64,000 bases of DNA from Deltaproteobacteria bacterium (GTDB taxonomy: Bacteria > Myxococcota > Kuafuiibacteriia > Kuafuiibacteriales > Kuafuiibacteriaceae): NCBI GenBank assembly GCA_040218735.1, contig JAVJQW010000023.1, positions 384,001-448,000 on the forward strand, in the 5' to 3' direction. The position numbers and the translations under genes were made by a program. Positions 6,301-21,482 of the stretch are shown here, in pieces (within the stretch, counting starts at the first letter, position 1; every line of letters starts with the position of its first letter). The notes under the pieces are model-generated. The model ran no database searches. It was given only the letters and a program-made list of their open reading frames with translations, and had not been told where the DNA came from.

Positions 6301-6511
6301 AGTGGATCTCGCTGCCGACGATCACCTCGAGGTTGTGCTCGCGCGCCGCGTTGTACGCGCGGACCACGCCGTACAGGCCGTCGTGATCCGTGATCGCGAG
6401 GCGGCGGTATCCAATTTCATTCGCGCGCGCGACGAGCTCTTCGGGGTGCGACGCCCCGCGAAGGAACGAAAAAGAGGTCGCGCATCGAAGCTCCACATAC
6501 CGCTGTCTCAT
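3314..6511 (-). CDS. dnaE2: Error-prone DNA polymerase III alpha subunit (DnaE2/ImuC)
   Basis: PHP N-terminus (SFSFLRGASHPEEL, AITDHDG), CQGRGSAANS, EPPDIDVDFE, GYGFPESHA, LLNSQPMGFYAP, OB fold RQRPGTASG, and C-terminal ARNFF (SRDFH-type tail). ATG at 6511. Confidence 0.97.
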   Translation of the reverse strand: MRQRYVELRCATSFSFLRGASHPEELVARANEIGYRRLAITDHDGLYGVVRAYNAAREHNLEVIVGSEIHFDVDARTGRESPGLVLLATDRDSYARLSRLLTLGRRRVGKGGFQLRFDDVAQNAEGLQAIHVGPLDALLIAREREVFGDRLALAVERSLSPFDRLRVEAVQSASARFQLPIVATGGVLMHERSRKPLQDILSCVRLGVRLDEGGRRLQPNTNAHLKSPEEMTALFADLPEAIEMSVHIADRCSFRLEELHQSFTLEVLPAGETGMSYLTKLVEKGATERYPDGVPEVVRRQIDHEMKLIEELDFAGYFLTVWDIVRYARSRNILCQGRGSAANSVVCYCLGITSIDPVRMNLLFERFISVERGEPPDIDVDFEHDRREEVIQYVYEKYGREHAAMVANFICYRGKLAYREVGKVFGLGLDQIDKLTRGRGHWAAGELDGDELRECGLDPDDPIVQQVVEWAETLQGFPRHLGLHSGGFVVTKEPLVEIVPVENATKEYRTVVAWDKRDVETLGLVKIDLLALGILSAVHRAFDFVLDTEGKQLTLANIPSEDPATYDMICDADTVGTFQVESRAQMQMLPRLEPRTFYDLVVSVAIVRPGPIQGDMIHPYLRRRDGLEKVEYPHPALEKILGRTYGVPLFQEQVMKMAVAIAGFTPGEADELRRAIGWSSQVHIDRLRDRLIAGMLGNGLEQEYAERVFRMIQGFGGYGFPESHAASFALIGYASCYLKRYHPAAFVAALLNSQPMGFYAPHTLVADAQRHGVEHRAPTISMSHWDSTLEPSTEAHQERWWRESKHKIKKHTPWADHLEGRSTYGLPVQPAVRLGFREVYGMSEPIAERIVDARESRPFESVEDLVLRADLPRDVAARLAASGALDELGLSRREALWRVTSMDRRSPLLFGVPLPDETESATKLPKMSPTEKMRADYATVGLSVNTHPMQLVRDEMKRRKVLGFLELERAPHGRRVRVGGMAVTRQRPGTASGVIFMTLEDEDGHMNLVVFSHVYARYRNVARDEVMLIADGEVQRTGRVVNLIVDHFAPLAVPQPGVAVARNFF

Positions 6512-6528
6512 GGTCGGATCTGCGATCA

Positions 6529-6562
6529 CGGATCAAAAGTTCAGTACCGATCAAGTGTGCAG
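6529..6562 (-). promoter_or_regulatory. Two tandem LexA-like (CTGAAC-N4-GTTCAG-type) boxes upstream of dnaE2
   Basis: Minus strand reads CTGCACACTTGATCGG-TA-CTGAACTTTTGATCCG. This resembles the Myxococcus LexA consensus, and a related site overlaps the imuB start. Confidence 0.55.
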
Positions 6563-6665
6563 ATCCCTACGATCCCTCAAGCTACGAATTTCATTCGCGC
6601 ATCTCGAAACCCCGAAGGCCCCGGGATGCGGCCGGGCGCGGGTTCGTGTACGCAGGAAGACGTCG

Positions 6666-8816
6666 ATGTCGCGCGCCTCGCGAATCCTCCCCGCCGTCGC
6701 ATCGCTCCTCGTCGCCGCACCTGCGTCGGCGCAGACGGTGTTCGGCTACCAGCTCGGTGTGGTGCAGAGCGCGGGCGGGACCTTCGGCGACCCGGTGAAC
6801 CCGTTGCTCGTCCAGCAGGACGGGCAGGACGACAACGCACCGGCCAACAACGTCCAGCAGGTCCAGGGCGTCCAGCTCAACACGACGGTCACCGCCAACG
6901 TGACGCTCGACGCCGCCACGAACCTCATCAACCACGGCCTCGTCCTCGGCGCTGCCTACACCCAGCTGCTGCCTTTCGCCGTCCCCGAGGACGCGCAAGC
7001 TACCTTGCGCGAACGTCAGTCCACCTTCAACGCCACCGCCCAGTACCTCGCGCGCGTTCAGGAAGCGCAGTGGGGCCTCCAGTTCGGCGCCGGCTACGTC
7101 TTCAGCCTGAACGGCCGACTCCCCACCGCCGCGACCGGACAGGTTGGGCAGGCCGCGGACGCCACCACACCCGCCACGAGCTTCGGGCTGTTCGCGCTCA
7201 ACGCGCAGGCGCACACGTTCAACGCGCAGCTCCAACACACCCTCAACCGCGCGCGGTGGGATCTCCTCAGCGGCGTCGGCTACACCTACGCTGTCAACGG
7301 CCTGTTCACCCTCGCCGCGGGCGGCGTCGGCGCGCAGAACCAGGCCGCCCAGAACGGGCAGATCGGGGTGGGGACGAACCTCGGCGGCTTCATCCTCCAG
7401 AACGCCCACACCATCACGCCGCAGGTCGAGTACCGGCGCCGCGTGAACGCCCGCAACACCCTCACCCTCCGCGCGAACGCCGCCGCGACGATCACCGTCG
7501 CGCCCGAGGACATCGTCACCGTCGAAGGCTTCGACACCACGATCGTCGCCGCGCAGATCGCGCTGCCCCCGACGCTCGTGAACAACGCCGAAGCGCTGTG
7601 GACCTACAACGCCAACAACGAGCGTCAGTTCGGCGGCTCGGTGTCCGGCACCTTCGGCATGCGCGTCCCCGTCGACGGCAACTTCAACGCGATCCCCGGC
7701 GCATCGCTCGGGCCCGACACCGTCATCTGGACCGTGCGCGGCTTCTACCAAGATCTCCTGCCCCTCGACACACGCCTCACGGTCGGCGCCGGCGTCGCGC
7801 AAGCCACCCTCATCCAGCCCCCCATCGGGGCCCCCGGCGATCCGGCCACGTTCGAACCGGTGCGCTCCAACCTCACGCCGCTCGTCGACGCGACGCTCCG
7901 GCGACGCTTCGAACCCGTCGACGTCGCGCTCGCCGTCGGGCGCGCGGTGGGCGTCGGTGCGTTCGGCGCATCCGCCGTCGTCACCGACACGGCGGCGCTC
8001 ACGTTCACGCACGTGACGGAGTGGGAGATGCCGCTCACCACGACGATCGGCTTCAACGCCCAACGCACCCAAGCCGTCGGCCAGGATCTCTTCCGCGGCG
8101 TCGATCCTCGTGACCCGGTCGTCGCTGCCTTCAACAACCAGGGCTTCGGCGCGATCGCCAACATCGCGTACCCGATCTTCCGCGAGGACCCCTTCGCGTT
8201 CGATCTCAACGCCTCCTACAGCTTCACGTACAACGACCTCGACCCGATGGACGTCCAGGGGCTCGAACCCATCCGCCAACACCTCGCCCTCCTCGCGCTC
8301 CGCGGCACCTTCGGACGCGGCGCCGCGCAGCAGGCGGTCGGCGCCGGTGGCCGACGCGACACGGACGAGCTCGACGCCTTCTCGTCCAACCCGCGCGACG
8401 GCTCCCCCCTCATCACCCAGCGTCTCCTCGGGCAGGGCGCGCCGATGCTCCAGCGCGGCGAGCGCCCCGGGCTCCCGCCGCGCGAAGCGGGGCGTCGCGA
8501 CTCACGGCAGCAGTACCAACAGAGCTTGAGACAAGAGCAGCTCGAGCAGGAGGCGCGCGACCGCTCGACCGCGGTGCAAGGCATCGGCTCGTACTACGAA
8601 GAGGAACAGCGCCGCCTCGAAGCCGAACGCGAAAAGCAGGAAGAAGCCGCCGACCAGCGCGACCGAGACGCCTTCAGCAACTGGCCGACCGACTCCGTCG
8701 CGCTGCCCGAGAACGCGCCGCCCCCGCCTCCACCGCCCCCCGCGGAGACGAAGGAAGAAGAGAAGCAGGAAGAGCCGCCGCCGCCGCCGAAGCGACGTCG
8801 CCGTCGTCGGCGCTGA
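6666..8816 (+). CDS. Exported protein, probable outer-membrane beta-barrel with long charged/Pro-rich C-terminal tail
   Basis: Signal peptide MSRASRILPAVASLLVAAPASA-Q. Many amphipathic beta-strands with Tyr/Phe/Trp girdles. The tail is coiled-coil, then poly-Pro, then poly-Arg. Confidence 0.65.
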   Translation: MSRASRILPAVASLLVAAPASAQTVFGYQLGVVQSAGGTFGDPVNPLLVQQDGQDDNAPANNVQQVQGVQLNTTVTANVTLDAATNLINHGLVLGAAYTQLLPFAVPEDAQATLRERQSTFNATAQYLARVQEAQWGLQFGAGYVFSLNGRLPTAATGQVGQAADATTPATSFGLFALNAQAHTFNAQLQHTLNRARWDLLSGVGYTYAVNGLFTLAAGGVGAQNQAAQNGQIGVGTNLGGFILQNAHTITPQVEYRRRVNARNTLTLRANAAATITVAPEDIVTVEGFDTTIVAAQIALPPTLVNNAEALWTYNANNERQFGGSVSGTFGMRVPVDGNFNAIPGASLGPDTVIWTVRGFYQDLLPLDTRLTVGAGVAQATLIQPPIGAPGDPATFEPVRSNLTPLVDATLRRRFEPVDVALAVGRAVGVGAFGASAVVTDTAALTFTHVTEWEMPLTTTIGFNAQRTQAVGQDLFRGVDPRDPVVAAFNNQGFGAIANIAYPIFREDPFAFDLNASYSFTYNDLDPMDVQGLEPIRQHLALLALRGTFGRGAAQQAVGAGGRRDTDELDAFSSNPRDGSPLITQRLLGQGAPMLQRGERPGLPPREAGRRDSRQQYQQSLRQEQLEQEARDRSTAVQGIGSYYEEEQRRLEAEREKQEEAADQRDRDAFSNWPTDSVALPENAPPPPPPPPAETKEEEKQEEPPPPPKRRRRRRR

Positions 8817-8822
8817 CCCAAG

Positions 8823-10265
8823 TCAGTTCCGCGTCCCGGACACCATGATCGTGAGCGTCGGCGTCACCGGATCGTTCGTCGGGACGTCGATCTCGGCCCG
8901 GTGTACACCCGCCGCCGGTGGATCGAACGTCACCTGGAACGGCAGTCCGGTCATCGGGGGCGGGTTGCAGTTCACGTCGGGCAGCATCGTTCCCGATGCG
9001 GGTGTATTCGACAACGTGAACGCCATCGGCCCCTGCGTCGTGCGCAACGTGATCGCGCCCGTCGTCATCAGCGGGAGCGTTCCGCAGTTCGACAGCGCGA
9101 CGTTGACGGTGGCCGGGGGATTCTCGCCCGTCTGCTGGAAGTTCACCTCCGCGGGGAAGGAATAGGCCGACGGCCGACCGACCTCACCGCGCACCAGCAC
9201 CGAAGACGTCGGGCGCGTCGCCGAGTTCGATCCGACGATTACCGTCTGCACGTCGAACTCGTAGTCGGCCGGCGTGTAGGTGACGTCGAACACACGTTCC
9301 TCGTTCGGCGTCAGGATGACTTGCCCCGCCATCGACGGGTCCGGGTTGAACGACAGCTCGTCCTCCATGCGCGCGAGCGACGCCTGGAACGTGAGGTCGC
9401 GGTTGCCCGCGTTGATCACGCGAATCGAACCCGTCGCCGTCGCGTTGCGATCCACGTTCAACATCTGCACCGCCGGGTTCTCGCCCGCCGCCGTGCACAG
9501 CTCCGGCTCCCCCGTCGCGCTCGCGCACACTTCGAGCTCCGGCCCGACGGCGGTGCCCGTCAGCGGCACCTCCACGGTCGGCGCCGCCATCGTCGTGGTG
9601 TCGAAGCGAACCACCCCGCTCACCGGCCCCATCGCGTTCGGCATGTACGTGACGGAGAACGTCGCGGTCCCACCAGGGTTGTAGACCTGCTCGACGCCCA
9701 TGTCGTCGGCGGTGAACGCGCCGCCGCCGTTGTCGTCGACACGGAAGTTCGACAGCGTGAACGCATCCGTCCCCGGGTTGCGCACCGTGACGTTCACCGT
9801 GACGGGCTGCGTCTGCGAGTTCCACAGCACCTCGCCGAAGTCGACCGCGGGCGGGTCCACGACGACCGCCGCTTCGATCCCCTCGCCCATCAGCGGCACC
9901 GAGATCGTCGCCGCCTCGGGATCGTTCGTCGCGAACACCAACGTCCCGCTCACCATCCCGATCTCCGTGGGGCGCAGGATGACGTCGACCTCGATCTCGT
10001 CGAACGTCGCCACCGTCGAGGTGATCGTCGGCGCCACGAACGGCGCGTCCGCCACGAAGCCGGACACGTCCGCGACGAAGGAGCCGCGGTTGATGATCTT
10101 CAGCTTCACGGTCTTCTGCGAGCTGACCGGCACGCGACCGAAGTCGATCATCGTCGGCTCCACCGTGATGGACGCGTTGAGGACGCCGAGCTCGTCACCG
10201 CAGTCGCAACCGGACACGGCGAGCGTGCCCAGCACGAGGAGGACGCGGATTCTCGAAGGGTTCAC
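8823..10265 (-). CDS. Lipoprotein with four tandem Ig-like ASH/choice-of-anchor-D domains
   Basis: Lipobox LAVSG-CDC. Repeated units of P..IDFG.V / N.G / TNDP / VPL.G. Confidence 0.8.
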   Translation of the reverse strand: MNPSRIRVLLVLGTLAVSGCDCGDELGVLNASITVEPTMIDFGRVPVSSQKTVKLKIINRGSFVADVSGFVADAPFVAPTITSTVATFDEIEVDVILRPTEIGMVSGTLVFATNDPEAATISVPLMGEGIEAAVVVDPPAVDFGEVLWNSQTQPVTVNVTVRNPGTDAFTLSNFRVDDNGGGAFTADDMGVEQVYNPGGTATFSVTYMPNAMGPVSGVVRFDTTTMAAPTVEVPLTGTAVGPELEVCASATGEPELCTAAGENPAVQMLNVDRNATATGSIRVINAGNRDLTFQASLARMEDELSFNPDPSMAGQVILTPNEERVFDVTYTPADYEFDVQTVIVGSNSATRPTSSVLVRGEVGRPSAYSFPAEVNFQQTGENPPATVNVALSNCGTLPLMTTGAITLRTTQGPMAFTLSNTPASGTMLPDVNCNPPPMTGLPFQVTFDPPAAGVHRAEIDVPTNDPVTPTLTIMVSGTRN

Positions 10266-10322
10266 GAGGGGATGAAACAACCCCCGGGCGGCGGGAGCCA
10301 TCCGCCAACGAAACGATCGGCG

Positions 10323-10727
10323 TCAGCGGGTCGCGACGGGCTCGCGATCGAGCAGCAAGCGCGCGTGCGCCCGGATCGCCTCCGACTCGGAGCGGCTGGC
10401 GGCGATCGTCTCGAGGAGCTGGTGCACCCCGTTCACGCGGCGCTCGACGAGCAACTCCAGCGCCTCTTCGCGGTGTGCGAAGTCCGGGCGCTGCGCCTCG
10501 CGCAACAGGACCGTCCACACCCGCGGGCTCGCGTCGTCGAGGCTCGCCTCGCGCTCCGCGGCCGGACCGGCGTGGTGCTCGAAGTCGTAGACGAACTTCT
10601 CGTCCGTCGGTCCAAGCGAGAATGCAAAGACCACGGCGACCGTCGGAATCAGCGCGGCGAACGGGATGACCCAGGTGCGTCCGAACCTCCCGGAGTTATT
10701 CGATCCGGCTCGTGACTTCTTCGACAT
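10323..10727 (-). CDS. Hypothetical single-TM protein with short helical (HEAT-like) C-terminus
   Basis: 134-aa ORF with an N-terminal TM helix, co-oriented 57 bp upstream of the ASH lipoprotein start used here. Confidence 0.6.
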   Translation of the reverse strand: MSKKSRAGSNNSGRFGRTWVIPFAALIPTVAVVFAFSLGPTDEKFVYDFEHHAGPAAEREASLDDASPRVWTVLLREAQRPDFAHREEALELLVERRVNGVHQLLETIAASRSESEAIRAHARLLLDREPVATR

Positions 10728-10844
10728 CGTCGCGTCGGAAGAACGAGCCGCGGTGCGCCCCGACTTCCGCTGGCTACATACGACGCAGCGGTCGATTTCA
10801 CAAGTTCTCGGATCCAGTCGGGACTTTCGACCCGGTCGACCCGT

Positions 10845-11459
10845 TCAGGCCCCTTCGCCCTCGACGTACGGGCGGAGGTAACGCACGAGGAGCAGCTTCA
10901 CCTCGGCGAGCAGCGCCCGCGCGCGACGCTCCGGCGCGGTCCGCGCCAAGAACAGGAACGACGTGGTCGTGTTGACCACCGTCGTCGCGACCACGCGTCG
11001 CTTCTGCGGCTTCATCGCGGGGATGAACGTCTTCAGCAGCGTCGCGACCTGGTCGATGATCTTCTCCATCATCGCGACGTCGTCTTTCTCGTACGCCGCG
11101 TAGAGCTGCAAATTCGAGTACAGCGCACGCACTCGGATATCGGTCCGCTCCCACTCGAAGTACGACTCCAGGTAGGCCTCCACCAGCGCCTCCCAGCCCT
11201 GGGCCATCAGCTCCGGGGTCAGGACCCGCGCGAAGACTTCGCCGGACTCGTCCAGGCACTGCTTCGCGATCGCGTGGAACAGCCCGTTCTTGTTGGAGAA
11301 GAACTGATAGATGGACCCGACGGACGTGTCCGCCCGGGCCGCGATCTCGTCGATCGTCGCCGCCTCGAATCCGACCTCCGAGAACACCTCCGCGGCCGCG
11401 TCCAGGATGGCAACGTACCGCCGCTTCGCGCGCTCTTGCGTCGGCGTGCGTCGCTCCAC
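10845..11459 (-). CDS. TetR/AcrR family transcriptional regulator
   Basis: ILDAAAEVFSEVGFEAATIDEIAARADTSVGSIYQFFSNK HTH. Probable GTG start at 11459, just downstream of the operator palindromes. Confidence 0.93.
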   Translation of the reverse strand: MERRTPTQERAKRRYVAILDAAAEVFSEVGFEAATIDEIAARADTSVGSIYQFFSNKNGLFHAIAKQCLDESGEVFARVLTPELMAQGWEALVEAYLESYFEWERTDIRVRALYSNLQLYAAYEKDDVAMMEKIIDQVATLLKTFIPAMKPQKRRVVATTVVNTTTSFLFLARTAPERRARALLAEVKLLLVRYLRPYVEGEGA

Positions 11460-12879: not shown

Positions 12880-14052
12880 GTGGTTCGTCCCGCGCGGGGG
12901 TTGTCTTGGTTCGATCGCGACCCGGCGGTCGGCGCCCCCACGGTCGACGGCGACCACGGCAAAGTCGGCGCGTTCTCCTTCTCGCGCAAGGACGTCGAGG
13001 CCGCCATGCGCCGCTTCGCGGTGGCCTCACCGGCACCGCTGCTCAGGCTCGCTCAGACCCTCGACGACGGCGACCGCCGCCTCGAGATGTCGGAGCTGAT
13101 CGCCGCCGGGCGCCTCGCGACCGCCGATCTCACGAAGGGGTTCTCGGTCGGCCCCGCCGCGCTCGCCGAGGTGATGAAGGCGCAGCGCCGCCCCGAGGAG
13201 TCGCTCCTCCTCCGCATGGCGCGCCGCTTCGACGACGGCGACCGGATCCTCGAACCCCACGAGCTGGAGCGCGCGGCGAAGCTGCTCGGCTCCGTGGTCG
13301 AACCGAACGACGTCGCCGCGATCTACCGACGCACGCGCGCGCTACCGGCGGAGGTCGAGACGATCGGCGTCGTCAGCGACGCGACCCGCTCACGTGAGAT
13401 CCTCGCGGCGCGCTTCCCCACCACCAACGGCAGCGAGCCCGAGCTGCGCGTCGTCATCACCGGCGGCGTGCACGGCGACGAGCCGGCTGGCGCTGGCGCT
13501 GCGCTCGCGTTCGCGGAGTGGCTCGCGACGAACCCCGCGATCCGCGAGCGCGTCGAGTTCGTCGTCATCCCGATGGTGAACCCGCGCGGCCTCGAAGACG
13601 GCACGCGCCGCACGCCCGAGGACGTCGACACCAACCGGAGCCTCGGCCCGGACGCAGAACACAAGACGCAGGAAGGCAAGATCGTCACGGCCTTCCTGAA
13701 GAGCAACGCGTTCGACCTCGGCATCGATCTCCACAGCGGCTCTCCCAAGCGCAACGGCTTCTGGCTCATGCACCGCGGCGCGGAGGACCTGCTCGGCCCG
13801 GTGATGAAGGCGTTCGATGTGGAGTGGCCGGTGCTCGCCGGCGACGTCCGCCCGTACATCGCGCAGCGGCCGGGTGTCTTGGTGAGCCGAAACTCGGGCA
13901 CGATGAAGGACGAGTTCGTGCGCTGCGGTGCGCGCTGGGGCGTCACCGTCGAAGCACCGCGTTCGATCAGCTACCTGGATCGGGTCTTCGGGGAGATGGA
14001 GCTGATCCAGCGGATCGTCGGCGCCGCGCTCGGGCGACAAGCCATCGCCTGA
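12880..14052 (+). CDS. M14 family metallocarboxypeptidase/deacylase with N-terminal duplicated EF-hand-like repeat
   Basis: GGVHGDE, PMVNPRG, DTNR, IDLH and TVEAP motifs. Confidence 0.85.
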   Translation: MVRPARGLSWFDRDPAVGAPTVDGDHGKVGAFSFSRKDVEAAMRRFAVASPAPLLRLAQTLDDGDRRLEMSELIAAGRLATADLTKGFSVGPAALAEVMKAQRRPEESLLLRMARRFDDGDRILEPHELERAAKLLGSVVEPNDVAAIYRRTRALPAEVETIGVVSDATRSREILAARFPTTNGSEPELRVVITGGVHGDEPAGAGAALAFAEWLATNPAIRERVEFVVIPMVNPRGLEDGTRRTPEDVDTNRSLGPDAEHKTQEGKIVTAFLKSNAFDLGIDLHSGSPKRNGFWLMHRGAEDLLGPVMKAFDVEWPVLAGDVRPYIAQRPGVLVSRNSGTMKDEFVRCGARWGVTVEAPRSISYLDRVFGEMELIQRIVGAALGRQAIA

Positions 14053-14061
14053 TACGGCAAG

Positions 14062-15846
14062 ATGCCGGCCGTGGAGCGCCCGAACCCCCTCGCCTTCGTC
14101 GTTCCGATCGTCGCGGCGGCCGTCGGACTCTTTTCCCTCCCCGTCCTGCTCGGTTTCGCGGGCAGCCTCCGCGCGCTGCAGGAGGGCGGCTGGTTCGCGT
14201 GGTTCGTGCTCGCGGCGTTCGGCTTTGGCGCCGTCTTCCAAGTCGTGATCGTCGCGGTGGGGCGCCCGCTCGGTGGGCTGGTGGCGCTCAGCGCAGTCCC
14301 GTGGCTCCTCGGCCTCGTCGGGACGCTGATGGGCCAGCGGATGGTCGCGCAGGCACTCGCCGCGGTCGACCCCAGCATGGTCGGCACGTTGTTCCTCGCG
14401 GGCACCGCCGAAACGATGGTGACCCGCGCGTTCGGTGGTTGGGCGTCGGCCTTCCTCGCGATGGGCGGCGGAATCGCGGTGCTCCTGCGAGACCGGAGCC
14501 GCTGGTCGCTCGCGACGCTCTGCGGCGCGCTCGCGATCGCCGCTCTGTTCACGGCGCTCGCCGCGATGACGTTGCGGACCGGCCTCGGCGCCATCGTGAA
14601 CGCTCCGCCCGACATGCGGATGATGTTGCTGGCGTCGGCGTTGTCCAAGCTGTGGCTCTTCGAAGTACTGCGGCTCGCCGCAATGGTGCTCGTCGGAGTC
14701 GGTGCGATGGTCGCCCTGCTCGTCAGCCTCACGAGGCCCGACGGACGCGCCGGCGCGATGCTGGCGGTCGTGGTGGCGCTCGTCGTTGGCGTTGCGGACG
14801 TCGGCGTCGTGCATCGATCCCGCGGAACCGCGGAGGCGGTGGCGTCGACGCGTGACACCAGCGGGGATGGCTTCGAGGCGTTGGTGCTACGCGGTTCATC
14901 GCACAACCGACCGCAGGCTCGGATCGCGCCGGGCAAGACGGTCGACGCGGCTCGGCTGGACGGAGCGGGCGACACGTTCACGGTCGAAGTCGATCACCGC
15001 ACCGACGGCGCGACGCTCCAAGCGTTCTTCGACGCCGCTGCGCGCGCTTCCATCGAGCGCGTCGAGATCGTCGGAAACCAACCGCCGCCCGCACCCGAGG
15101 TGATGGCCGCCGCCGGGATCCACGCGGTGTACGTCGCGCTCGCCACCCGAGGTCCGGGCGCCATCGAGGTGCAGACGTCGGCGGGGCTCCCGAAGGATGT
15201 GCTGCGCGCGACCTTGCGTCCCGGCGCTCCCCTCGCGCTCGAGTCCCGCCCCGGGGAGGTCGTCGAGACGGTCACGATGGGCGGACCGTCCGTGGAGGGC
15301 CGCGGGCGGCGCGTCCTCCTCACGCTGGAGCCGAGCGTCACGGCTTCGTATGTGGTCCAAGCCGTGGCGGCGCTACAGACCAGCGACTTCGTCGTCGCGG
15401 TGGGGCAGAGCGAGCCGCCCGAGCAAGAGACGGACGAAGACCCCGGCGAGGGCGTGGTGGGGATGGTCGGGTTGCTGAGGACGGAAGGGTCGGAGGGGAC
15501 CGCGCGACGGAAGGTCACGCCGAAGGTCGTCCCGGGGCGGTCGCAGGTCCGCGGCACACTCGACCGCGCGATCATCCAGCGCGTCATCCGCGCGCACCGC
15601 GCGAAGATCCGCTACTGCTACGAGCGCGAGCTGGTGAAGCAGCCGAAGCTCTCCGGCAAGATCGTCACGTCGTTCGTCGTGAGCGCGGAGGGTTCGGTGA
15701 GCAGCGCGACGGTGAAGAAGTCCACGCTCGGATCGAAGGGCGCCGAGCAGTGCATCGTGAGCGCGCTGAAGCGGATGAAGTTCCCGAAGCCGCAGGGCGG
15801 CGGCATCGTGATGGTCACCTACCCGTTCATCTTCAGCCCGGGTTGA
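14062..15846 (+). CDS. Polytopic membrane protein: MotA/TolQ/ExbB-like N-terminus, ExbD/TolR-like periplasmic domains, C-terminal TonB-C (AgmX/PglI) domain
   Basis: EGGWFAW, PWLLGLVGTLMG, AGTAETMVT; TVEVD...FFDAAARASIERVEIV; GTLDRAIIQRVI...YCYERELVKQPKLSGKI...FPKPQGGGIVMVTYPFIF. Confidence 0.75.
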   Translation: MPAVERPNPLAFVVPIVAAAVGLFSLPVLLGFAGSLRALQEGGWFAWFVLAAFGFGAVFQVVIVAVGRPLGGLVALSAVPWLLGLVGTLMGQRMVAQALAAVDPSMVGTLFLAGTAETMVTRAFGGWASAFLAMGGGIAVLLRDRSRWSLATLCGALAIAALFTALAAMTLRTGLGAIVNAPPDMRMMLLASALSKLWLFEVLRLAAMVLVGVGAMVALLVSLTRPDGRAGAMLAVVVALVVGVADVGVVHRSRGTAEAVASTRDTSGDGFEALVLRGSSHNRPQARIAPGKTVDAARLDGAGDTFTVEVDHRTDGATLQAFFDAAARASIERVEIVGNQPPPAPEVMAAAGIHAVYVALATRGPGAIEVQTSAGLPKDVLRATLRPGAPLALESRPGEVVETVTMGGPSVEGRGRRVLLTLEPSVTASYVVQAVAALQTSDFVVAVGQSEPPEQETDEDPGEGVVGMVGLLRTEGSEGTARRKVTPKVVPGRSQVRGTLDRAIIQRVIRAHRAKIRYCYERELVKQPKLSGKIVTSFVVSAEGSVSSATVKKSTLGSKGAEQCIVSALKRMKFPKPQGGGIVMVTYPFIFSPG

Positions 15847-16420
15847 CGAGCAGGTGCACGTCCTGGCGACCGGCGAAGCCGCAGAAGCTGAACACCACGG
15901 TGGTGCTCACGTAGAACGGTTTCTTTCGTAGGTCGACCGGCCTGAAGCCACCGTTCTTGATCACTGCGTTCGTGCGCGCCACCGGCTCCGCGGTGTTCGT
16001 CACCAACACAAAACGATAAGCCGAGGCGGCGCCGAGGAACGACTGGATGCGGCGGGTGTCGAGGTGCTGCAAGACGTCCTTCGCGATCAGGAGGTCGGCT
16101 TCGGGGAGCGCGTCGAAGGTGCCGTCGCTCAGCGCGAAGTGAACGTTCTCGGACCCGAAGCGCTCCTGGTTCGTTTCGATCACCGACGCCACGACGTCCA
16201 CCCCGGTGTAGTCGACGCCCGACCAGTCGACGAAACGCGAGAACTGCCAGTCCCCGCAGCCGACGTCGACCACGCGCTCGATCTGATTCCACAGCAGGAA
16301 CTCCTGCAGGAAACGACGGTACGCGATCGTCTCGTGCGACGCCGAGCCGGGCCCCGAGCCCTGGCCCCACACGCCGTCGTCGTAGATGCCGGTGAAGATC
16401 TTCGAAACGGAGTCCGCCAC
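15833..16420 (-). CDS. Class I SAM-dependent methyltransferase
   Basis: WGQGSGPGS, VVDVGCGDW, YTGVDVV, KDVLQHL. GTG start at 16420, 11 bp after the imuB stop. Confidence 0.88.
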   Translation of the reverse strand: MADSVSKIFTGIYDDGVWGQGSGPGSASHETIAYRRFLQEFLLWNQIERVVDVGCGDWQFSRFVDWSGVDYTGVDVVASVIETNQERFGSENVHFALSDGTFDALPEADLLIAKDVLQHLDTRRIQSFLGAASAYRFVLVTNTAEPVARTNAVIKNGGFRPVDLRKKPFYVSTTVVFSFCGFAGRQDVHLLVNPG

Positions 16421-16431
16421 GCGAAGTCTAT

Positions 16432-18318
16432 TTAATCGAAGATGCCGTGCACGAACACCGCCCCGGTCGGCTCGGCGTACAGCCACAGCCGACGCCCGTC
16501 CGCGATCTCCGCGACCCAGTAGTCCCGGGCGATCGGCTCCTGCGTCCACCACTCCGCTTCGAGGCGCTCTGTCGCGCCGAGGTGCACGACCGGATACCGA
16601 CGACCGCGCCAGCGGATCACGCCGTCCTCCGTCTTGCTCTCGCGCGACAGCTCGATGCGCTCCGGCTTCGCGAGTAGCTCCAGCGGCCGCGGCGGCAACG
16701 GCGGCAGCGGCTCGTCCTCCGGCTTGCGCTGGATCGGCTTCGGCCAGGCGGGCTTTGCGTCGAGCGTGGTCTCGCTCTCGTCGATCGTGTCGGGGATCGA
16801 CGTCACCGCGAGCCCCGCGTCGACGGACGGCAGATGCTCACGCGCGCCCCCCTGCTCCGCGAGCGGCGCGACGAGCTGCGGCCCCTCCCGCACCACCGGC
16901 TTCTCCTGCGGCGGCTCTTCGAGCGCGACCTCGATGTCGAACGGCAGCGTCTTCCACGCGGCCTCCGGGCGGTGAGTATCGGCGATCGTCGGCGAGAAGA
17001 TCGCGCCCTCCCCCAGCGCCGCCTGCAGACGCCCGACGAGCTCACTCACCTCTTCGAGCCGCTGCTGATGGTTGCGGAACAGATCGAGCTGCGCGCCGTG
17101 ATCGGTTTCGGCGGTCGCCGCCTCGACGGTCACCGCCAGCACCGCGCCCGGCAACGAGGCCCCCATCCGCTCCCGCGCGAGCGCCAGCATCGTCGACGCC
17201 CGGCGCGTCGCGCGCGCGAACTTCAGCTCGACGGTCTCGGTGTGTTTCGAGCTGCGCTTGCGGTGCGCGTCGTTCTCGATGCGCGAGAACATCGGCGGCT
17301 CGACGAGGAAGTGGACGAGCAGCGAACGCACCGCGCGCGCGCGCGCCGAGAGCCGATCCTCCAGCCGCCCGAACAACCGCTTCAGCACGAACAGGATCGG
17401 TTCGAGGTCCTCGGTCACCGCGTTCAGCTCGAACGTCTCCACGGTGCGCTCCGGCGGGTGATACGCCCGCAGCGGACGCGCACCCTCCGCACGCGCGCGC
17501 CGCGACATCTGCGCGCCCGCCTCCCCGAACCGACTGCTCACCTGCGACGCCGGCAACCCGACGAAGCGCCCGACGTCCTTCACCCCCAGCAACGCGAGCG
17601 ACGATACCGCCCCGCGCATGTGTTGCTGCAGGACGCCGTCGGGATCGACGCGGCGGTCCGTCCAGGTGATCGCTTCGAGCGGGAGCTTCGCGAGCTGCGA
17701 CGGCGCGTCATCGACGACCGCGACACGCGGCGCCTCGACGATCGCCTTGTGTTTCTTCTGCGGAGGTTTGCGTCCCGAGCGTCGGCGCAACCTAGGTTGC
17801 GAAGGCGGCGGCGCGTAACGAAGACGCGACAGGTGCTCGGCGAACGTACGCGCGGTGTCCGGGTCCTTCGCGATGGCGACCGTCACGCGGTGGCCCGCGC
17901 GCTCCATGAGCTTCTCGATCGACTCGGCGATGAAGCGGTCGGTCAGCTCCTCCGGACGACGCTTCAGCTTCTTCGCGATCGCCCGCCGGCTCCGCCCGAT
18001 CTCCACGAACAACAGATCGGGCGGCGCGATCTCGACCTCCGGTCCGTAGGCGAAGAGGAGCTGGGCCGCGTGGTCCAGGCGCGACTGCTCGAGGCTGATG
18101 TCCCGCGACTCGACCCACAGGTCCAAGTCCCGCGCCTTGCCCTCGCTCTCCTTCATGCCGGGGCGAATGCCGCGGCGCCGCGCCTCGTCGGAGACACTCA
18201 CGAGCACCCGCTGCCCGCGAACCTCCTCCCGCACCGCGACGGGCCGCTCGCGATCCTCGAAGAGGCTCTCGACCGGGAGCGACGACAGGTGCACGGCAGC
18301 GACGCGTCGGCTCGACAT
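16432..18318 (-). CDS. imuB: ImuB, catalytically inactive Y-family polymerase homologue
   Basis: Y-family-like N-terminus lacking the catalytic Asp (VAAVHLSSLP), ARRRGIRPGM, QLDLF clamp motif, and ImuB C-terminus ERLEAEWW...RDYWVAE...RRLWLY...VHGIFD. Confidence 0.92.
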   Translation of the reverse strand: MSSRRVAAVHLSSLPVESLFEDRERPVAVREEVRGQRVLVSVSDEARRRGIRPGMKESEGKARDLDLWVESRDISLEQSRLDHAAQLLFAYGPEVEIAPPDLLFVEIGRSRRAIAKKLKRRPEELTDRFIAESIEKLMERAGHRVTVAIAKDPDTARTFAEHLSRLRYAPPPSQPRLRRRSGRKPPQKKHKAIVEAPRVAVVDDAPSQLAKLPLEAITWTDRRVDPDGVLQQHMRGAVSSLALLGVKDVGRFVGLPASQVSSRFGEAGAQMSRRARAEGARPLRAYHPPERTVETFELNAVTEDLEPILFVLKRLFGRLEDRLSARARAVRSLLVHFLVEPPMFSRIENDAHRKRSSKHTETVELKFARATRRASTMLALARERMGASLPGAVLAVTVEAATAETDHGAQLDLFRNHQQRLEEVSELVGRLQAALGEGAIFSPTIADTHRPEAAWKTLPFDIEVALEEPPQEKPVVREGPQLVAPLAEQGGAREHLPSVDAGLAVTSIPDTIDESETTLDAKPAWPKPIQRKPEDEPLPPLPPRPLELLAKPERIELSRESKTEDGVIRWRGRRYPVVHLGATERLEAEWWTQEPIARDYWVAEIADGRRLWLYAEPTGAVFVHGIFD

Positions 18319-18331
18319 CACAGGTGTTCAG
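18316..18331 (-). promoter_or_regulatory. LexA-like box overlapping the imuB start
   Basis: Minus strand CTGAAC-ACCT-GTGATG has a perfect CTGAAC half-site. A weaker CTGACC-GACG-GTCGCT lies at 18359-18374. Confidence 0.5.
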
Positions 18332-18437
18332 TATCCGAGATCCGTGCGCGCGATCGCAAGCGACCGTCGGTCAGTCCAACGGACGCGTAACCGCCCGGAC
18401 TGCAAAGGGCAAAGTCCAGAGTGCTACTACAGACAGT

Positions 18438-21400
18438 GTGCCCACCCCGCGTACGTTTCTGCTCACCGCTACCCTGACGAGCCTCGCCGTCGCCGCCTGG
18501 GCCGACGGCACTCGGCCGGACCGCCCCGCGTGGGAGCGCCCGAAGAACGGCGTCCGCCTCGCGGCCCGCGACGTGTTCCTCGACCGCGGCAAACCCGTCC
18601 CCGACGTGGGCGCCGCGTTCTACGTGTTCGCGGAGCGCGCGCTCACCCGCGCGGACGTCGCCGCCGCGAAGCAAGTTGGCTTGCGCTACCTCGGCACCGT
18701 CACGGCGTACGTCTACGTCTTCCAGCGCGCCGCCGCGCACGCCGACGCCGACGCCTACCTCGAAGCGTCGTGGATCCGCGGCACCGCGAAGGCGCTACCG
18801 ATCGATCGTGTCGACGAAGAAGTGCTCCCCTACTTCGCGAAGGACGAGCCGCTCCCCCACCCGCTCGTCGTCGCCGCGTGGAGCGAGACCACCGCCGGTG
18901 AGATCGCCGCGCTGATCCCCGGCGCGGAAGAGCTGCGCCGCCTCCCCACCGATCCGAACGAAGCCATCCGCGAGGAGTGCCACTTCCACGTCGCCGACCG
19001 CGATCTACTGAAACGACTCGCCACCTCCCCCTTCGTCGCGTCCATCGGGTTCGACTGGCCGAACAAGTCCCACAACACCGCGTCGCGCCGCATCTCCCAC
19101 GCCGACGCGCTCGTGAACGCGCCCTACAACCTCGACGGCACCGGCGTCGTCGTCGGGCACTGGGACGGCGGCAGCGTGTCGAGCTCGCACCAGGACTTCG
19201 GCGGGCGCGTCACCAACTACGAGAGCCGCGGCGTCTCCTCTCACGCCACCCACACCGCCGGGACGATCCTCGGCTCCGGCGCCGGCGACCGCGACGCGCA
19301 GGGCTTCGCGCCCGGTGCCACCATGGTCGCCTACGACTTCTACGGCGACGCCGCCGCCGAGCGCCGCGAAGCAAAACACGACCACTACCACGAACACGAC
19401 AACCACTCGTGGGGCTCGACCTCGACCAACTTCGGCTCGTACGCCGGCTCCGCGCAGGAGTGGGACCTCGACTCGCGCGACCTCTTCCTCCTCGGCATGA
19501 AGGCGGCCGGCAACGAAGGGCGCAGCAGCCAGGTCAACGACAACAACTACGGCTTCGACTCGCTCCCGCCCGACTCCACCGCGAAGAACCTCCTCGTCGT
19601 GGGCGCGACCGACGACGACGGCGACCTCACGAGCTTCTCCAGCCGCGGACCGACCAACGACGGCCGCATCAAACCCGACATCTCCGCGAACGGTCAGAAC
19701 CTCTACTCGGTGATGCCGTCGGGTCGCTACGGATCGATGAGCGGCACGTCGATGTCGACGCCGTCCGTCACCGGCATGGTCACGCTCCTCGCCGAGCTCT
19801 ACAAACGTGAGTTCGCCGGCGAGCGCCTCACGCCCGACCTCGTCCGCGTCATCATGATCCACACCGTCACCGACGTGTTCCACCGCGGACCCGACTACCG
19901 CCACGGCTGGGGCAACGCCGACGCGCAAGCCGCCGCCAACCTGATCCTCGCCGACGCGGCCGCCCCCGGCACTCGCCTCGTCCGCGCCGCGGTCCGCGAC
20001 GGCGAGACCTACGAGTACGAGATGGACGTGACGCCCGGCAGCAACGAGGTCCGCGTGACGCTCTCCTGGCTCGACGCCTACGCGAACAGCACCGCGCAGC
20101 GCCGCCTGATCAACGACCTCGACCTCGAGCTGATCTCCCCGAGCGGACAGACCTACTACCCGTGGACGCTCGACGCCGCGAACCCGTTCGACGACGCGGT
20201 CCAGAACCAGCGCAACGACCTCGACAACGTCGAGCAGGTGCTCGTCGAGTCGCCCGAGGACGGCGTGTGGACCGTGCGCATCGCGGGCACGAACATCCCG
20301 GACCCGAGCTTCGACATCCAGGGCTTCACGCTCGCGACGAGTCACTCCGTCGCGCGCACGTTCGAGAAGGTCCGCCCCGACCTCGGACCGAACGGCGCCG
20401 CGATCCCGGACAACGACACCAGCGGCCTGGTCGTCGACCTCGACGTGCAGGACGCGCGCGACGTGAAGTCCCTCCGCGTGCGCGTCGAGATTCGCCACCC
20501 GGCGCGCGGCAACCTCGAGATCAACCTCGTGCACCCCGACGGCACGCGCTCCAACCTGGAGAAGGCCGACACCTCCACGCGCCGCGACATCTTCGCGATC
20601 TACCCCGACACCCGCAGCTACGACGAAGACGTCACGATGTTCTACGGCCGCTCCGGCCAAGGCACCTGGAAGCTCGAGGTCATCGACGGCAACGCGGGCC
20701 AGACCGGATCCCTCGTCGATGTCTCCCTCGAGCTCGACCTCGAAGGTCCGCCGCCTCCGCCGCCGAACGTCCCGCCCACGGCCGACGCGGGTGACGACCA
20801 GACCGTCAACGCCGGCGACCCCGTCGCGCTCGACGGCAGCGGCAGCAACGACGCCGACGGCGACACGCTCGTGTACCTGTGGCAGCAGCAGTCGGGCGTC
20901 GCGGTGTCACTTGGGGACGCTTCGACCGTCGCGCCGTCGTTCACCGCGCCGAGTGTGAAGGAGACGACGACGCTGGTGTTCCGTTTGAACGTCGACGACG
21001 GGAACGGCGGAATGGCGTCCGACGACGTCGCGATCACGATCATCGGCGAGAAGCCGGAGGGCTCGAACCGCGCGCCCATCGCACGCGTGGCGGACGACTT
21101 CACGGTGGGCCCGGGGTTCGAGGTCGGCCTCGACGCAACGCAGTCCGAGGATCCGGACGGCGACCCGATCACGTTCAACTGGACCCAGACGGCGGGCGCC
21201 GACGTGGAGATCCTGCGCGCCTCGGAGGCCTACGCTTCGTTCGTCTCACCGAACGTCGACGAAGCCACGACGCTCACCTTCCAGGTCGAGGTCACCGACG
21301 ACAGCGGCGAAGTCGACCTCGCGACGATCAACGTCACCGTCGAACCCGGCGCCCCGCCGCCGCCGATGGTGCGCGTGCCGCTCGAAGGGCTCGTGGGCGG

Positions 21401-21482
21401 GAGCTGCCGCTGCGTCGAACGTGGTGGGTCGCCGTGGTGGCTACTGTTCGGGCTGGTGCTCTTCCTGCGCCGTCGCTCATAG
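18438..21482 (+). CDS. Secreted S8 (subtilisin-like) serine protease with P-domain, PKD/Ig-like domains and MYXO-CTERM-like tail
   Basis: Catalytic triad GHWDGG / HATHTAGTI / GTSMSTP. IPDND...GTWKLEV P-domain. PTADAGDDQ PKD repeats. GGSCRC...WWLLFGLVLFLRRR tail. Confidence 0.93.
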   Translation: MPTPRTFLLTATLTSLAVAAWADGTRPDRPAWERPKNGVRLAARDVFLDRGKPVPDVGAAFYVFAERALTRADVAAAKQVGLRYLGTVTAYVYVFQRAAAHADADAYLEASWIRGTAKALPIDRVDEEVLPYFAKDEPLPHPLVVAAWSETTAGEIAALIPGAEELRRLPTDPNEAIREECHFHVADRDLLKRLATSPFVASIGFDWPNKSHNTASRRISHADALVNAPYNLDGTGVVVGHWDGGSVSSSHQDFGGRVTNYESRGVSSHATHTAGTILGSGAGDRDAQGFAPGATMVAYDFYGDAAAERREAKHDHYHEHDNHSWGSTSTNFGSYAGSAQEWDLDSRDLFLLGMKAAGNEGRSSQVNDNNYGFDSLPPDSTAKNLLVVGATDDDGDLTSFSSRGPTNDGRIKPDISANGQNLYSVMPSGRYGSMSGTSMSTPSVTGMVTLLAELYKREFAGERLTPDLVRVIMIHTVTDVFHRGPDYRHGWGNADAQAAANLILADAAAPGTRLVRAAVRDGETYEYEMDVTPGSNEVRVTLSWLDAYANSTAQRRLINDLDLELISPSGQTYYPWTLDAANPFDDAVQNQRNDLDNVEQVLVESPEDGVWTVRIAGTNIPDPSFDIQGFTLATSHSVARTFEKVRPDLGPNGAAIPDNDTSGLVVDLDVQDARDVKSLRVRVEIRHPARGNLEINLVHPDGTRSNLEKADTSTRRDIFAIYPDTRSYDEDVTMFYGRSGQGTWKLEVIDGNAGQTGSLVDVSLELDLEGPPPPPPNVPPTADAGDDQTVNAGDPVALDGSGSNDADGDTLVYLWQQQSGVAVSLGDASTVAPSFTAPSVKETTTLVFRLNVDDGNGGMASDDVAITIIGEKPEGSNRAPIARVADDFTVGPGFEVGLDATQSEDPDGDPITFNWTQTAGADVEILRASEAYASFVSPNVDEATTLTFQVEVTDDSGEVDLATINVTVEPGAPPPPMVRVPLEGLVGGSCRCVERGGSPWWLLFGLVLFLRRRS

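Follow-up and report, generated by a model that had tools for sequence, protein, structure and literature searches.

The gene examined here, P0001, lies in a 64,000-nucleotide stretch of myxococcotal DNA (assembly GCA_040218735.1, contig JAVJQW010000023.1, positions 384,001 to 448,000), called the window throughout, which comes from a genome of 11.6 Mb in 70 contigs. Directly upstream is a gene for an AstE/AspA-M14-type peptidase (12880..14052) whose stop falls 10 bases before the P0001 start, and the 3' end of P0001 overlaps a convergent methyltransferase gene (15833..16552, reverse strand). Ton, Tol and Agl systems and flagellar stators are now viewed as 5:2 rotary machines of separate subunits. 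Our analysis supports the view that P0001, an inner-membrane protein conserved in Myxococcota, unites diverged homologues of the three Ton/Tol/Agl components in one chain, in the order usual for their operons: an ExbB/TolQ-derived domain with seven transmembrane (TM) helices and a duplicated TM2-TM3 hairpin, two ExbD/TolR-like modules, a linker of about 50 residues, and a TonB-like domain (Table 1). Support for the fused modules is strongest for the TonB C-terminal domain, followed by the ExbB hairpin and then by the ExbD-like modules.

Table 1. Features of P0001, with residue numbers (amino acids, aa) and positions in the window. ORF, open reading frame; AF2, AlphaFold 2; pLDDT, predicted local distance difference test.
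Feature	Residues (aa)	Window position	Strand	Basis or remark
Whole gene P0001	594 codons, 594 aa	14062..15846	+	ORF open; predicted 7-TM inner-membrane protein, N-terminus inside, C-terminus periplasmic
Extra N-terminal TM helix	10-30	14089..14151	+	AF2 helix; absent from ExbB
ExbB/TolQ-like unit	32-143	14155..14490	+	Profile comparison and superposition on TolQ/ExbB
Glu117 codon	117	14410..14412	+	Invariant in alignment A4; aligns with the conserved ExbB/TolQ TM3 glutamate (hhalign register)
Second, degenerate ExbB-like hairpin	145-224	14494..14733	+	Internal repeat by hhalign; Lys196 at the Glu117-equivalent site
TM7, with Asp246 near its periplasmic end	226-262	14737..14847	+	AF2 helix; leads the chain into the periplasm
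ExbD/TolR-like module 1 (probable)	283-340	14908..15081	+	hhalign against ExbD; strands and helices in AF2, pLDDT >90
Connecting helix between periplasmic modules	345-361	15094..15144	+	AF2
ExbD/TolR-like module 2 (probable)	365-447	15154..15402	+	Structure comparison of the AF2 model
Disordered acidic, Gly/Pro-containing linker	450-499	15409..15558	+	pLDDT <50 for aa 461-494
AgmX/PglI-type TonB C-terminal domain	500-592	15559..15837	+	NF033768, TIGR01352 and TonB fold matches

The tail is the part of the protein that curated models recognise. NCBIfam model NF033768, for the AgmX/PglI C-terminal domain, matches aa 500-592 with an E value of 4.7e-32 (110 bits against a cut-off of 40), and TIGR01352 matches with E 4.5e-8 (33.3 bits against 27.1); Pfam TonB_C falls below its threshold (E 0.0037, 18.1 against 24.6 bits). 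In structure comparisons Foldseek gave a probability of 1.00 to TonB C-terminal domains, and such domains superposed at Z 8.0-8.8 with a root mean square deviation (rmsd) of 2.0-2.6 A, the best being Neisseria meningitidis TonB 9ddz (Z 8.8, rmsd 2.0, 81 of 83 residues). A sequence search of the PDB with P0001 returned weak TonB matches and nothing else, and aa 1-480 had no match in Pfam, NCBIfam or PDB sequence searches. GltG (PglI) and GltJ (AgmX) are the named carriers of this tail; their equivalog models reach 137 bits against a cut-off of 650 and 39.9 against 450, respectively, both on the tail alone, and Pfam finds no FHA domain in P0001. By these profile scores P0001 truly belongs among the proteins with an AgmX/PglI tail, and it is an orthologue of neither GltG nor GltJ. 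The tail itself is widespread: this genome has 12 matches and each of 40 relatives has between 1 and 19, and the ORFs that carry it differ greatly in length. The linker region before it (aa 450-500) contains 5 Pro, 9 Asp or Glu, 7 Lys or Arg and 8 Gly.

Relatives of the remainder of the protein emerged once the tail was set aside. With the whole of P0001 as query, 41 of 41 genomes gave a match, via the tail alone; with aa 1-480, one orthologue of 613 aa, 31% identical, was found in a sister genus, along with recurrent weak matches in which aa 73-126 aligned with ORFs of 215-300 aa, two of which, when opened, proved to be ordinary ExbB/TolQ genes with a pair of ExbD-like genes downstream of each. 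Word-indexed protein searches returned only P0001 itself, a relative at 84% identity and one alignment member, and a single-protein search of genome contigs returned no relative. A HMMER search with aa 1-490 against 1.84 billion representatives yielded 15 proteins with E no higher than 1e-3; dropping P0002 (99% identical) and P0009 (2522 aa, matching at aa 446-477) and adding P0003, a relative at about 84%, gave an alignment of 15 sequences (A2). A tail-less profile (A3) run over 401 Myxococcota genomes matched 283 of them at E up to 1e-5. By hand count, 103 of the 150 rows listed cover at least 150 model positions and are family members, from about 90 genomes and with ORFs of roughly 320-830 aa; the other listed rows are mostly canonical ExbB/TolQ genes that match at model positions 88-136 only, at E 1e-8 to 1e-10 per genome, and a further 289 matches lie beyond the 150 listed. 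Twenty-nine family ORFs were recovered and 21 used; those left out were an ORF identical to P0008, another that extends beyond its locus, and six near-duplicates or ORFs with over-long starts. Adding 14 database proteins, with P0013, a fragment of 116 aa, excluded, gave alignment A4, of 35 rows, whose members share 15-48% identity with P0001 except for one relative at about 85%. Pfam family PF01618 matches 1 of these 35 members (E 4.4e-4) and PF02472 matches 2, with a best E of 0.23. This is an unannotated membrane-domain family to which Pfam and NCBIfam are blind, common in the Myxococcota searched and seen only in Myxococcota here. Three members (P0015, P0016 and P0018) carry about 60-70 additional hydrophobic residues between the hairpins (A2 columns ~170-240), maybe an extra helix pair.

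Profile comparisons place the N-terminal part of P0001 with ExbB and TolQ. Cuts of A4 served as hhalign queries, the ExbB/TolQ target comprised 30 canonical proteins (20 from this genome and 10 from relatives), and the controls were thirty column-shuffled plus reversed profiles. The cut of aa 1-262 scored 65.7 against this target (probability 95.8%, E 8.3e-9), compared with at most 14.1 for shuffled and 14.5 for reversed controls; the match spans the TM2-TM3 hairpin, and the version made from the 15-row alignment reached a probability of 93.4%. The ExbB TM1 region was matched by aa 28-70 with a score of 29.1 (probability 69.7%, E 4.2e-5, controls at most 12.8). Within the chain, aa 67-145 matched aa 145-262 with a score of 46.7 (probability 95.5%, E 1.4e-8, run without controls), which shows that the hairpin is duplicated. 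On this evidence, aa 32-149 are a diverged MotA/TolQ/ExbB membrane unit, comprising TM1 and the TM2-TM3 hairpin without the cytoplasmic domain, and P0001 belongs to the MotA/TolQ/ExbB superfamily by homology, outside the curated family. PF01618 itself gives no match to P0001 even at E up to 10, and a genome-wide search at E up to 1 returned 20 other loci.

The AF2 model of the full-length protein, built on A4 (mean pLDDT 90.6, predicted template modelling score 0.73), fills in the layout of this domain. Its helices span aa 10-30, 32-42, 44-66, 71-99, 104-143, 145-180, 183-224 and 226-262, and together with the loop charges, under the positive-inside rule, they suggest seven membrane passes with the N-terminus inside and the C-terminus outside, the ExbB-like helices being oriented as in ExbB. 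The extra N-terminal helix would set this topology, with the next helix entering from the periplasm as ExbB TM1 does. Within the ExbB/TolQ-like unit, a short periplasmic helix leads into a TM1-like helix, a four-residue cytoplasmic loop (aa 67-70) and the TM2-TM3-like hairpin with Thr88, Glu117 and Arg122. A loop this short means that the ExbB cytoplasmic domain is absent; the cytoplasmic parts of P0001 amount to an N-terminus of 9 residues and loops of at most 8, the TM6-TM7 loop being 8 residues. In second-look superpositions, aa 33-148 of the model lay on residues 10-207 of Acinetobacter baumannii TolQ 9avi_A with Z 6.4, rmsd 3.5 and 23% identity over 115 aligned residues, and on Escherichia coli ExbB 6tyi_A with Z 6.4 over 109. 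TolQ and ExbB appeared only in this second look, at ranks 27-28, with Z values no better than those of generic bundles, so that the N-terminal structure matches agree with the sequence evidence and add nothing to it, and support for TM1 is moderate. When the full model was compared with the PDB by Foldseek, the high-probability matches were all TonB C-terminal domains, with no ExbB among the matches listed. A predicted homodimer of two copies of aa 1-460, made from its own alignment and without controls, scored 0.00 in both runs and is no evidence either way. The original prediction had read ExbB-like TM1, TM2 and TM3 segments with a missing long cytoplasmic loop, then a degenerate second hairpin and a final TM helix with Asp246, and all of this stands; the stretches that it quoted, here and in the periplasmic part, lie at aa 39-48, 80-91, 113-125, 307-337 and 418-447, and Thr88, Glu117 and Asp246 are where it had put them.

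Sequence evidence for the periplasmic modules is uneven. Against an ExbD/TolR set of 16 proteins (12 from this genome and 4 from relatives), aa 265-345 scored 31.5 (probability 69.5%, E 4.2e-5, controls at most 11.0), in register with the strand-helix-strand core of ExbD, and aa 362-455 scored 18.5 (E 0.011, controls at most 8.1), a match that is weak by sequence; the two modules share a weak mutual likeness (E 3.2e-4), and the first helix of module 1 is shorter than in other family members. A separate AF2 model of aa 256-478 (pLDDT 87.3) was compared by VIA-align with about 48,000 PDB representatives. The best match was E. coli TolR 5by4_A (Z 6.7, rmsd 4.7, 93 residues aligned), with Haemophilus influenzae TolR at Z 5.1 and E. 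coli ExbD at Z 4.0 further down. In a second look at module 2, ranks 1-5 were TolR 5by4 (Z 6.7) and the ExbD entries 8p9r_B (6.3), 8pek (6.3), 8vgc (6.2) and 8vgd (6.1), the superposition on 8p9r_B having rmsd 2.6 over 64 of 73 residues; the first unrelated matches were ribosomal uS11-type chains, at Z 5.7 and below. Foldseek of the middle model found nothing at E below 0.1, with ExbD 8vgc_A at rank 39, and the best ESM Atlas match was an ExbD-domain cluster at a score of 0.76, below the level that the tool treats as meaningful. PF02472 gave no match to P0001, which is absent from the 18 PF02472 matches listed for this genome. Support of this kind is moderate, and aa 283-447 probably form two ExbD/TolR-like periplasmic modules; with Z values below 8, we rate the fold as probable rather than proven. 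The pair of ExbD/TolR-like segments in the original prediction thus survives, the first by its profile match and the second through its structural neighbours, and the TonB-C/AgmX domain that it placed at the C-terminus is confirmed by the curated models and the TonB fold.

Conservation across A4 picks out one residue in the membrane. Glu117 is present in 35 of 35 members and is the sole invariant column; the corresponding TM3 glutamate of E. coli ExbB is Glu176. Gly43 and Ala98 follow, each in 34 of 35. At the first pore-threonine position (Thr88 in P0001) there are 15 threonines and 3 serines, and at the second, where the hhalign register puts Arg122, 19 members have Arg. Asp246 is found in 17 members, and column 196, occupied by Lys196 in P0001, holds Glu in 16, Asp in 3, Arg in 5 and Lys in 4. 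Conservation had been proposed as a check on Thr88, Glu117 and Asp246, and it favours Glu117 and speaks against the other two. PMC12905483 calls the pore-lining residues Thr148 and Thr181 of E. coli ExbB and Asp25 of ExbD essential. The TonB-like tail is present in 13 of the 35 members.

Separate subunits of the same types are plentiful in this genome, with 20 MotA_ExbB loci and 17 ExbD loci above curated cut-offs. The operon of the canonical paralogue that best matches P0001 encodes a TolQ/ExbB protein (221 aa) followed by two TolR/ExbD proteins (159 and 190 aa), and this agreement with the order of the fused modules suggests that the fusion arose from such an operon. According to PMC3169522, GltG is a bitopic protein that has an FHA domain in the cytoplasm as well as a TonB domain and that binds the TolQ-like AglR in a two-hybrid assay, which makes a fusion of such partners plausible. 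TonB and GltG normally bind the ExbB/AglR subunit via a membrane helix of their own, as parts of PMC3169522 and PMC12905483 describe. Literature searches listed no paper that presents, in its title or the opening of its abstract, a single chain of ExbB, ExbD and TonB, and the passages of PMC12204202 on fusions contain none on ExbB-TonB.

Set beside these known proteins, P0001 shows both likenesses and departures. With ExbB, TolQ and AglR (PF01618) it shares a TM1 that enters from the periplasm, a glycine-rich TM2-TM3 hairpin with a short periplasmic turn, the TM3 glutamate and the predicted orientation in the membrane, but it has no cytoplasmic domain, has an extra N-terminal helix and a hairpin duplicated in one chain, does not conserve the pore threonines (the second site being Arg), is fused to periplasmic domains, lacks an exbD neighbour and falls below the Pfam threshold. 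Its two alpha/beta modules resemble the periplasmic part of ExbD, TolR and AglQ-AglS (PF02472), and their tandem arrangement mirrors the two exbD genes of local operons; unlike those proteins, P0001 lacks an ExbD-type membrane helix, has its Asp at the periplasmic end of TM7 and not near the cytoplasmic end, and carries the modules within one chain rather than in a homodimer, at 6-10% identity in structural alignments. Like TonB, GltG and GltJ, it ends in an AgmX/PglI-type TonB C-terminal fold after a flexible linker, whereas its anchor is a 7-TM, ExbB-derived domain in place of a single helix, it is without FHA, and it lies outside a glt/agl cluster.

Gene neighbourhoods were compared at 14 family loci, with genes called by third-position GC and 77 neighbours scanned, three on each side. 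ExbB, ExbD, TonB and TonB-dependent receptor genes were found at 0 of the 14 loci, and no neighbour is common to the whole family. Synteny is confined to sub-clades: an ABC exporter with DnaJ at L101, L103 and L104, an ATP-grasp gene at L094, L097 and L106 (two of these loci also having an adjacent hybrid histidine kinase), and a propeller-type hybrid kinase of about 1260-1300 aa at L095 and L099. One Myxococcota genome (L105) has two 636-aa family members in tandem (7104-9014 and 9470-11380, both on the reverse strand) with a 108-aa ORF between them.

In the window, eight ORFs around P0001 were scanned with Pfam, and the products recognised were the peptidase, the methyltransferase, a P450, a TetR regulator, an ImuB-like protein and an S8 peptidase, with no exbB, exbD or tonB gene among the eight. 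The ImuB-like gene (Pfam IMS family; 16432-18321, reverse strand) lies about 10 kb from a 1071-aa ORF (3314-6529, reverse strand) that reads by eye as a candidate error-prone DnaE2-type polymerase, and the two may belong to one mutasome whose genes are interrupted by unrelated ones, P0001 included. The S8 subtilase (18324-21482, forward strand; 1052 aa) has PKD/Ig domains as well as a P domain of the proprotein-convertase type; HYDIN/ASH-type Ig-like domains occur in a 492-aa protein (8823-10301, reverse strand). An 808-aa ORF (6390-8816, forward strand) matches no Pfam family at E up to 0.001 and ends in a long tail rich in Glu, Arg and Pro. Beyond the likely source sample, three studies contribute four metagenome runs (labelled sponge, biofloc and aquaculture) whose contigs contain 56-74% of the sampled words of P0001, and no RNA dataset is listed among the sequencing runs that share its sequence words.

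We put at about an even chance the reading that P0001 is a non-rotary, glutamate-dependent coupler embedded in the membrane, or an energised tether. The buried, invariant Glu117 would take up and give off a proton, or else maintain an ion lock, with Lys196 in the second hairpin as its pseudo-symmetric partner site. Helix positions would then depend on whether Glu117 is protonated or ion-paired, and a helix shift could pass via TM7 and the ExbD-like modules to alter how far the tethered TonB-like head reaches, or how tightly it binds its presumed partner in the outer membrane or periplasm. A rotary 5:2 motor is unlikely on this architecture, since P0001 has no cytoplasmic domain, pore threonine pair or ExbD-type Asp and its parts are joined by short ties. 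The original prediction had excluded the canonical 5:2 stoichiometry outright; the hallmarks of such a machine are indeed missing, and we would word the outcome as improbable. It had also offered a repurposed sensor, and the lack of a cytoplasmic domain argues against a signalling receptor and makes that option unlikely.

Several observations count against the fused, glutamate-coupled protein proposed here. The MotA_ExbB and ExbD models of Pfam and NCBIfam do not recognise P0001, and an unbiased VIA search with the full model matched the N-terminal domain to generic or designed helical bundles only. In the ExbD profile comparison module 1 reaches a probability of 70% and module 2 one of 4%, and the ExbD-like Z values of 6.1-6.7 fall short of the tool's level of 8, below which a match may reflect a merely common arrangement, an unrelated fold already reaching 5.7. 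Twenty-two of the 35 family members lack the TonB-like tail; some end after the ExbD-like region, and forms of about 320 aa are without any periplasmic domain, which argues that the membrane domain has a role of its own, independent of the head. The invariant membrane glutamate could also be structural rather than proton-binding.

One alternative is a passive anchor, in which an ExbB-derived domain that has lost any energy function would simply hold a periplasmic scaffold, made of the ExbD-like modules and the TonB-like head, that links the inner membrane to an outer-membrane or cell-wall partner. The loss of motor hallmarks, the promiscuity of the AgmX/PglI tail across genomes and the unconserved gene neighbourhood all suit such a role. 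A mere anchor would not be expected, however, to keep a buried glutamate invariant in 35 members at about 15-30% identity, nor to retain the ExbB hairpin signature in two copies, and we consider it rather unlikely.

A self-contained, one-polypeptide proton motor was the suggestion of the original prediction, and its two halves fared differently: a one-chain fusion is supported module by module, and a motor is not. Several chains would have to assemble with their hairpins around TM7 axles, proton flow driving the TonB-like heads. Every module type of a Ton system is indeed present in the chain, Glu117 is invariant, and the absence of exbB, exbD and tonB genes from the 14 loci and from the eight ORFs of the window leaves P0001 not visibly dependent on its neighbours. 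TM7, though, is unlike the ExbD membrane helix (aa 222-270 scored 5.6 against the ExbD profile, with no alignment), and Asp246, in under half the family, sits at the helix's periplasmic end. The pore threonines are likewise unconserved and the ExbB cytoplasmic domain is gone. In the model, the 8-residue TM6-TM7 loop would keep a TM7 axle from turning freely, let alone continuously, in its own chain, and two hairpins per chain would not allow a five-fold ring of hairpins. We therefore hold a motor of this kind to be distinctly unlikely.

Improbable to much the same degree is an accessory subunit, whose hairpins would co-assemble with, or dock onto, an ordinary ExbB/ExbD complex and so add a TonB-like head to its motor. 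The many MotA_ExbB and ExbD loci of this genome would supply such complexes, and the binding of TonB and GltG to ExbB/AglR through a membrane helix, as described in parts of PMC3169522 and PMC12905483, provides a precedent; yet no canonical motor stands beside any of the 14 family loci or among the eight ORFs scanned in the window. Finally, a chance resemblance, with an unrelated Gly/Ala-rich polytopic N-terminal domain, an unrelated alpha/beta middle domain and the TonB-like tail alone being real, would fit the silence of the curated models and the modest structural Z values for both regions, but it is highly improbable given profile scores 4-5 times those of shuffled or reversed controls with signature positions in register, canonical ExbB matches to the family profile that recur across many genomes, and TolR/ExbD chains in all five best PDB matches of the middle module.

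The coupler or tether favoured here joins diverged copies of the channel, the plug and the force-transmitting head of a Ton-type system in a single protein, the channel having lost its cytoplasmic domain and doubled its hairpin while one membrane glutamate has stayed invariant. A bolder form of the idea, a natural single-chain Ton-type transducer in which a proton binding to the invariant Glu powers a non-rotary stroke whose movement reaches the outer membrane, seems to us unlikely; if true, it would mean that neither continuous rotation nor a 5:2 stoichiometry is required for this superfamily to transduce the proton gradient. Should P0001 fail to respond to the proton gradient, it would be an example of a motor subunit recycled into an anchor. 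Should it respond, it would offer a minimal, genetically simple system for finding out which parts are needed in coupling and whether rotation is obligatory, and P0001 may in this way serve as a natural test of the need for rotation in the Ton and Tol machines of the cell envelope.

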